A stretch of 64,000 bases of DNA from sequence record HE978309. The stretch is one strand, 5' to 3'. The notes under the pieces were generated by a model. It had not been told where the DNA came from, made no database searches, and worked only from the letters and a program-made list of their open reading frames with translations. Below, piece after piece: positions 48,763 to 49,101 of the stretch (positions are counted from its first letter, which is position 1; the number at the start of each line of letters is the position of its first letter). The DNA comes from Enterobacteria phage GEC-3S. The translations under genes were made by a program, and so were the position numbers.

Positions 48763-49051
48763 GTTCTCTATTCTCCATATTATGCAACATAACAAACTGT
48801 TGTGCGGCATATTCCCCCATAATAAAACACTGCTTAGAATCCATACATTTACTACGAGCGTACATCTTCATAACGTGGGCATGAAATTTCTGGCTGGTTT
48901 CAATGGAAGGAGATATTTTGTTTACATATACTATCATTGCACCGTCGAAATAATCAGTAAAGTCACCAGTTGGATCATATTGATCAGCACTGACACTTCC
49001 GACCGCAGTCAAGCATATTGCCGCTGTTAGAGTTTTACGAATAAATGACAT
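48749..49051 (-). CDS. secreted/periplasmic protein with signal peptide (100 aa)
   Basis: N-terminus MSFIRKTLTAAICLTAVGSVSA; preceded by hairpin-embedded late promoter. Confidence 0.5.
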   Translation of the reverse strand: MSFIRKTLTAAICLTAVGSVSADQYDPTGDFTDYFDGAMIVYVNKISPSIETSQKFHAHVMKMYARSKCMDSKQCFIMGEYAAQQFVMLHNMENREHEIH

Positions 49052-49060
49052 AAGTCATTC

Positions 49061-49101
49061 CCCCAGATTTAAAAATATTCAGTTATATTTATAATCTGGG
49101 G
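49061..49101 (-). promoter_or_regulatory. inverted repeat (9-bp stem) with T4 late promoter TATAAATA in the loop; 3' arm carries the SD of the downstream gene
   Basis: CCCCAGATT ... AATCTGGGG perfect stem; TATAAATA at 49086-49093 on minus strand. Confidence 0.5.

Follow-up and report, generated by a model that had tools for sequence, protein, structure and literature searches.

A hairpin at the junction of tk and rI in Enterobacteria phage GEC-3S, one of the RB49-like coliphages (Krischvirus), probably acts as a temporal translational gate on the antiholin gene rI. The junction lies in a 64-kb stretch of DNA (64,000 nucleotides of record HE978309), the whole of which we call the window and to which Krischvirus genomes are 96–98.6% identical. 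Sequence and computation directly establish the structure, the conservation and covariation that it shows, a conserved promoter core, which gene is involved and a difference in computed accessibility; from these we infer early read-through, a late start and an effect on translation. Specifically, early RNAs that read through from tk would hold both arms of the hairpin and fold a 9-bp stem, or about 15 bp with an inner A-U helix. The Shine–Dalgarno sequence (SD) of rI, GGGG(G), would then pair with CCCC 40 nt upstream, 30S binding would be blocked, and no RI would be made early. After the onset of replication, gp55-RNA polymerase would start at TATAAATA inside the hairpin, at about G49080. The resulting late RNAs would lack the 5′ arm and leave the SD free, and RI could be translated alongside the late holin T, its regulatory target. 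A weaker hairpin with the AUG in its loop would stay in both kinds of RNA and probably holds RI output low.

The core of the element is a perfect 9-bp inverted repeat on the minus strand, in which CCCCAGATT (49101–49093) pairs with AATCTGGGG (49069–49061) across a loop of 23 nt. Its parts, in window coordinates, are:

49093–49101, minus strand: 5′ arm CCCCAGAUU of the putative gating hairpin, present only in transcripts started upstream (sequence and fold; conserved, with compensatory changes).
49061–49069, minus strand: 3′ arm AAUCUGGGG of the putative gating hairpin (sequence and fold; conserved).
49086–49093, minus strand: T4-type late promoter core TATAAATA, predicted to span −13 to −6 (motif scan; invariant in 14 distinct relatives; T4 orthology).
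49079–49080, minus strand: predicted late start, G49080 (+1) and A49079 (invariant amid a variable loop; start taken from the position rule).
49073–49090, minus strand: optional inner A-U helix (49090–49085 with 49078–49073) that extends the hairpin in early RNA, weakly conserved (minimum free energy, MFE, structure).
49060–49064, minus strand: Shine–Dalgarno GGGGG, 8 nt before the AUG, with four Gs paired in the 9-bp stem.
49043–49060, minus strand: second hairpin GAAUGAC-UUAU-GUCAUUU, in early and late RNAs (MFE; RNAalifold).
48749–49051, minus strand: coding sequence (CDS) of rI, the RI antiholin and lysis-inhibition regulator, 100 aa, with an N-terminal hydrophobic secretion signal (PF24205, phrog_1246, RB49 annotation).

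An earlier note on this DNA had described the inverted repeat in the region 49049–49101; both its coordinates and its description are borne out, and the predicted fold contains the same stem. The note had also placed an exact late promoter core in the loop. The core TATAAATA is indeed exact, but only seven of its eight nucleotides lie in the loop, the first T being the last base of the 5′ arm. The predicted +1, G49080, falls 6 nt past TATAAATA, in keeping with the rule that puts the late core at −13 to −6 (PMC1524935), and 12 nt 3′ of the whole 5′ arm. The third part of the description, an overlap of the 3′ arm with the SD of the open reading frame (ORF) at 48749–49051, also holds: the arm contains four of the five Gs of GGGGG, and the fifth (49060) adjoins the arm and is followed by AATGACTT and the ATG at 49051. 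By this pairing of four SD Gs the stem qualifies as an SD-sequestering helix. The MFE of a 121-nt RNA is −28.9 kcal/mol (z = −3.75; equalled by 1 of 200 shuffles), and its structure consists of the 9-bp stem, the inner 6-bp A-U helix and the adjacent second hairpin. A search of Rfam gave no match to the hairpin element. Just 5′ of the 5′ arm lies a second late-promoter-like motif, CATAAATA (49112–49105, minus strand), from which a start would fall inside the arm; we set it aside as a second late promoter, since more divergent relatives do not keep the motif.

The effect of losing the 5′ arm can be expressed as an opening cost, i.e., the free energy needed to force positions −14 to +3 of the translation initiation region (TIR) to be unpaired. 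We computed it for an early-type RNA with 120 nt of upstream context (160 nt in total) and for a late-type RNA that starts 6 nt after TATAAATA. For rI of the window the cost is 21.7 kcal/mol in the early-type and 8.3 kcal/mol in the late-type RNA, and the relatives L005, L022 and L032 give 20.8–21.2 and 8.6–10.8 kcal/mol respectively. T4 gene e, our positive control, gives 15.4 kcal/mol in the early-type RNA and 4.7 and 1.9 kcal/mol in the late-type RNAs from its two promoters. The drop from early to late is thus 13.4 kcal/mol for rI, compared with 10.7–13.5 kcal/mol for T4 e with the same script. These calculations support the earlier proposals that read-through RNA would hide the SD, at a modelled cost of 21.7 kcal/mol, and that a late RNA starting in the loop, with its +1 on the 3′ side of the 5′ arm, would be unable to form the stem. 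The proposed likeness to T4 e and soc fares differently for the two genes: e matches rI in the size of the effect, but the soc control, for which the +1 is assumed, shows only a small difference (7.9 kcal/mol early-type, 6.3 kcal/mol late-type), so the computed accessibility is sensitive to exactly where the start is placed.

The gene behind the hairpin can be named with some precision. The product of ORF 48749–49051, whose start codon ATG occupies 49051–49049 on the minus strand, matches the Pfam family PF24205 ('T4-like virus antiholin') with E = 1.9e-23 and 82.5 bits, against a Pfam cut-off of 27, and phrog_1246 ('lysis inhibition') with E = 4.6e-26. The RI alignment contains two conserved cysteines and N-terminal hydrophobic segments. 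By profile and synteny, the product is thus assigned to PF24205 as an RI antiholin. The earlier description of a different, secreted protein is right about the hydrophobic N-terminal signal, but the protein is RI, and rI is, like e, a lysis-timing gene.

For the conservation analysis we compared the tk–rI junctions of RB49 (L001), one IMG/VR contig (L003) and metagenomic and genomic contigs with RI 57–95% identical. Additional junctions were sought with a metagenome DNA-pattern scan that was anchored in the coding start and hence unbiased as to the stem; it contributed three copies that are nearly identical and a spurious match (L030). IMG/VR contains only one Krischvirus contig. In an alignment of 14 distinct sequences, the mean pairwise identity is 0.57 in the upstream spacer, 0.90 in the 5′ arm, 1.00 in TATAAATA, 0.56 at positions −5 to −1, 1.00 at the predicted +1/+2 (G49080, A49079), 0.66 in the rest of the loop and 0.95 in the 3′ arm/SD. 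Functional arms, promoter core and initiating nucleotides, set in what is otherwise spacer, would leave such a pattern, and their conservation extends over relatives with RI 57–98% identical. The element is kept in all 57 Krischvirus GenBank records (57/57), with at least 96% identity except for JK32 at 91.5%.

Could an A/T-rich intergenic region have acquired TATAAATA and a short inverted repeat by coincidence, with the stem kept through close kinship only? Inverted repeats of 9 bp are common: allowing loops of up to 40 nt, the window has 31 nine-mer hits (∼21 distinct repeats), with ∼13 expected from Markov shuffles. The exact TATAAATA occurs at 3 sites where 5.65 are expected, i.e., it is not enriched, and most relatives at hand are at least 96% identical across the element. 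However, only 0.37% of the 8-mer positions of the window fall within the loop of such a repeat, and the chance that any of the three TATAAATA sites does so is ∼1%, before the overlap with the SD is required. The fold is also unusually stable (the z of −3.75 above), and identity drops to 0.56–0.66 in the flanking spacer and loop segments whereas the arms, promoter and +1 hold 0.90–1.00. Because the arms, promoter and +1 are conserved and covariation is present in relatives, coincidence is disfavoured, and we consider it very improbable.

The two remaining exact TATAAATA sites of the 64-kb window lie at 59260–59267 and 61897–61904, both on the minus strand. The former overlaps the stop of ORF 59259–59477 just ahead of ORF 59034–59231, and has no inverted repeat of 9 bp or more and, judged by eye, no comparable hairpin. 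The latter lies within ORF 61850–62506, ∼80 nt ahead of the next ORF, and shows no SD-sequestering hairpin in the scripted fold.

Changes in the stem among relatives mostly preserve pairing. Several lineages lengthen it to 11 bp, CCCCCAGATTA/TAATCTGGGGG, with all five SD Gs paired. In L022, where RI is 74% identical, the arms are CCCCUAAGUUA/UAACUUGGGGG, which relative to the 11-bp form replace G-C by A-U, A-U by G-C and C-G by U-G. In L032–L034 (RI 57% identical), AUUCCCCCAA-A-UUAUAA pairs with UUAUAA-C-UUGGGGGAAU, giving 10 bp, an A·C mismatch and 6 more bp. Over the alignment 95.7% of the cells of this helix are paired, with double-sided changes at 2 pairs (3 cells) and a covariation score of 0.069 compared with 0.046 in shuffles, a value reached by 1 of 500 shuffles; six controls in slid registers are 31–53% paired and have 0 compensatory changes. 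When the inner A-U helix is included, the count rises to 3 compensatory pairs in 4 cells, which none of 500 shuffles attains. In the inner helix itself 83% of cells are paired, and the single compensatory change, U-A to C-G, is in L022. RNAalifold, run on 15 relatives with no structure supplied, predicts the same two hairpins. This covariation, though real, is thin and lends modest support to the maintenance of the helix in evolution.

Joint change of the two arms in L022 and L032 would formally fit a co-evolving palindromic site as well, and the symmetric half-sites do bracket TATAAATA. The inverted repeat might then be a DNA operator, at which a dimeric phage or host protein bound to half-sites flanking the late promoter represses or activates it; operator control by I-TevI at its own T4 late promoter is a precedent (PMC2988022). 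The details of the variation speak for RNA. The change of C-G to U-G in L022 keeps pairing in the sense-strand RNA but breaks the DNA symmetry, and the spacing of the half-sites varies between 20 and 23 nt among relatives, which a hairpin loop tolerates better than dimeric binding does. Pairing is moreover extended outward and inward in differing registers, in the manner of a helix rather than a fixed site, and the 3′ half-site coincides with the SD. An operator is therefore a very poor candidate compared with the translational gate.

The gate also requires early transcripts that reach rI from upstream. The surrounding features are:

49121–49717, minus strand: CDS of tk, thymidine kinase (ORF list; annotated tk in RB49 and 50+ Krischvirus records; PF00265 in relatives).
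49102–49120, minus strand: spacer of 19 nt from the tk stop to the hairpin, poorly conserved (sequence; mean pairwise identity as above).
48364–48765, minus strand: CDS of rI.-1 (DUF5856), overlapping the end of rI and the last gene of the unit (ORF list; RB49 annotation; family profiles).
48106–48133, minus strand: GC-rich 12-bp hairpin with T-runs on both strands, a predicted intrinsic bidirectional terminator that closes the tk-rI-rI.-1 unit (inverted-repeat and terminator scans).

The TAA stop of tk is at 49123–49121 (minus strand), and the terminator scan found no intrinsic terminator between tk (49121) and rI (49051). Strong sigma-70-like promoters lie 2.1–2.8 kb upstream, at 51223–51195 and 51893–51865. 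Computation thus points to co-transcription of rI with the upstream early genes by read-through. The gene order regB-vs.1-vs-tk.4...tk-rI-rI.-1 is conserved, with tk-rI-rI.-1 as in RB49; T4 departs from it by a 70-codon rI.1 inserted between tk and rI.

The T4 locus is informative about the promoter. In T4, two promoters are described for the rI.1-rI-rI.-1 operon, a late one in the interval from tk to rI.1 and an early one at a distance of 3.3 kb upstream (PMC2962797), and TATAAATA can be read in the T4 sequence at the tk/rI.1 junction, so that the motif of the window sits at the orthologous junction of tk and the rI operon. The two loci share this junction, the synteny and the position of TATAAATA ∼30–40 nt before the first ORF of the operon. 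They differ in that T4 has rI.1 between promoter and rI and no gating, whereas the Krischvirus-related clade has no rI.1 and has the hairpin. In T4, CC31, PS2 and Rgz1, TATAAATA lies 32–37 nt before rI.1 and no SD-sequestering stem was found at the rI locus. The orthologous promoter, again separated from rI by rI.1, is present in 17 of 21 IMG/VR rI loci of other T4-like lineages. For these 17 loci and the four phages the early/late difference at the TIR is −0.8 to +1.7 kcal/mol. Aeromonas phage 25 and Acinetobacter phage 133 have neither the gating hairpin nor the terminator-promoter arrangement described below. Among the T4-like rI loci examined, the gating hairpin thus appears to be an innovation of the Krischvirus-related clade.

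A different solution is seen in CC31, where a terminator-like hairpin abuts the 5′ side of the late promoter (L015, ∼735–760; e.g. GGGGAGCAUGCUCCCCUUU-TATAAATA). The same abutment occurs in an IMG/VR contig matching Serratia phage Muldoon (L052, ∼565–590), and the record of Miro (L020) annotates a terminator at 731–746. This terminator-before-promoter layout is a different way to insulate the rI operon from early read-through. It also makes one ask whether the hairpin of the window is itself a terminator or 3′-end stabiliser of the early tk message, or an antisense terminator, with the loop promoter restarting transcription late. The hairpin begins 19 nt past the tk stop, and GenBank records do label it a terminator, in G37-3 (L037, MK327941) at 173–212 on the sense strand (ARNOLD, −11.16) and in TB34 (L039, OX001802) at 165–213 on the antisense strand, where the stem is followed by CUUUAUUUAU. 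On the sense strand, however, the stem is followed by GGGGGAAUGAC and no U-tract, and the loop of 20–23 nt is far above the size found in intrinsic terminators, so the hairpin lacks both the short loop and the U-tract of a rho-independent terminator on that strand; the terminator scan reports nothing here. No gene on the plus strand converges on the hairpin. Nor does a terminator need a 3′ arm that is the SD, an overlap that is kept in every lineage, with all five Gs in many. Termination as the function of the hairpin is therefore unlikely and the GenBank label is probably wrong, though a role as 3′ stabiliser could coexist with gating.

The second hairpin, at the start codon, has 7 bp; the first two nucleotides of the AUG are in its loop, and the G belongs to the stem. 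In the relatives 100% of its cells are paired, with one change from A-U to G-U. A small hairpin of this type, whose loop contains the AUG and whose 5′ arm takes up part of the SD, is found at the start of rI in four genera. Its sequence differs between them: the stems are GAAUGAC/GUCAUUU in the window, AGGCC/GGCCU in T4 (L002, ∼3488–3505, minus strand), GGGAC/GUCCC in PS2 (L016, ∼892–908) and GGGC/GCCC in Rgz1 (L017, ∼864–882). In T4-type phages it lies 7–12 nt past rI.1, a position that suggests translational coupling or dampening of RI output. One relative, Escherichia phage vB_EcoM_Skers (L038, MW748999), has a 12-nt deletion at ∼255–275 (TATGTCATTTAT) that removes the second hairpin together with the normal start codon; its annotated RI start is the ATG within GGGGGAATGAC (MTRKTL...), directly past the G-run. 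The deletion may reflect natural variation or a fault in the assembly.

Taken together, the tandem hairpins could form a two-level control of lysis inhibition, with the gate confining RI to the late period and the AUG-loop hairpin making it conditional on a further input, a scheme that we think is quite unlikely. The further input might be temperature, a trans-acting factor with a link to superinfection or, in T4-type phages, translational coupling to rI.1. If such a scheme were true, the supply of RI, besides its stability, would be a regulated step in the lysis-inhibition decision.

Several observations weigh against the translational gate or limit its reach. The late rI RNA is opened only partly: it keeps 8.3 kcal/mol over the TIR, above the 1.9–4.7 kcal/mol of the late T4 e RNAs, because the second hairpin around the AUG persists in it. 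The covariation comes from two divergent lineages, both of them metagenomic contigs and one with the A·C mismatch, and most of the stem is invariant. The role of its 3′ half as the SD is a further constraint, and the promoter core TATAAATA shares one base with the 5′ arm. That core is not enriched in the window, and it is conservation and orthology that point to its being a promoter. Only 3 nt separate the tk stop of L032, the most divergent lineage, from the base of its extended stem (L032 1442–1460), so ribosomes terminating at tk could transiently open part of that stem. Our literature search returned no transcript mapping, structure probing or translation data for the rI locus of any phage. 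Finally, T4 rI is described as transcribed early too (PMC2962797), and computation showed no gating at the T4 rI locus. Late-only RI is therefore not a general requirement.

The closest parallel to the rI gate is the T4 e leader, in which a hairpin that sequesters the SD reportedly has late promoters within it or next to it (McPheeters et al. 1986, as reviewed in PMC3014915). In both cases a lysis-related gene lies downstream of an early unit, the stem pairs the SD, late RNAs lack the 5′ strand (by prediction for rI) and the computed opening cost drops by a similar amount. The differences are that e is an endolysin gene with two promoters, whereas here a single promoter serves the antiholin gene rI in another phage genus. 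In the rI hairpin the promoter is placed in a long loop of 23 nt instead of in the 5′ strand, and the late RNA retains an extra AUG-loop hairpin. The rI gate is proposed here from sequence and computation, whereas that of T4 e is known from experiment: for e the hairpin and late-promoter logic is experimentally established, and translation from the early transcript is ∼100-fold lower (PMC3014915).

The same logic has been described for soc, 49, I-TevI/II/III, segB and Aeh1 mobE (PMC3014915, PMC2988022). As proposed for rI, these are late genes in early or middle polycistronic units that are silenced by sequestration of the ribosome-binding site (RBS) and released by a proximal late promoter. 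Unlike rI, they encode capsid-decoration, recombination-nuclease and homing-endonuclease functions, and none acts in lysis inhibition. The rI hairpin has no sequence similarity to the hairpins of soc, 49, I-TevI, segB and mobE, and would therefore be an independent instance. By sequence-level criteria we would place it in the T4 class of late-promoter/RBS-sequestering hairpins. In a literature search that did not cover the 2002 RB49 genome paper (Desplats et al.), we found no report of RBS sequestration at rI or in RB49. The mechanism is long known from T4, and its probable use on the antiholin gene rI would be a new example.

If the gate is real, RB49-type phages restrict RI synthesis to the late period post-transcriptionally, and the rule known from e, soc and I-TevI extends to a regulator of lysis timing. 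RB49 is listed without an apparent gene e (PMC3014915), so here a lysis-timing gene other than the endolysin gene would carry the device. In T4 and several other genera the orthologous operon is ungated or has a terminator placed before the late promoter, which sets up a natural comparison across genera of whether lysis inhibition suffers from early RI, gains from it or is indifferent to it. Automated annotations that call the hairpin a terminator would also be corrected. No new mechanism is revealed, and the interest is modest in that sense.

Some further features of the region are independent of the gate. A near-consensus sigma-70 promoter, TTGACA-17-CATAAT, lies at 48093–48065 on the minus strand, immediately after the terminator at 48106–48133; together (48065–48133) they look like the boundary to the next early unit. 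Upstream of tk, the products of vs (50873–51232, minus strand) and vs.1 (51240–51830, minus strand) start with sequences resembling Sec signal peptides (MKKLTIIAMIAMMFSAGALA... and MLKVLKAIVLSLSLAVGATHA...). This is odd for vs, which is labelled 'valyl-tRNA synthetase modifier' in relatives, since the supposed target enzyme is cytoplasmic. In the metagenomic relative L007 (positions 1–553), a 260-aa ORF with a weak NUMOD3 match replaces the small ORFs upstream of tk, and is likely a homing-endonuclease insertion next to tk.

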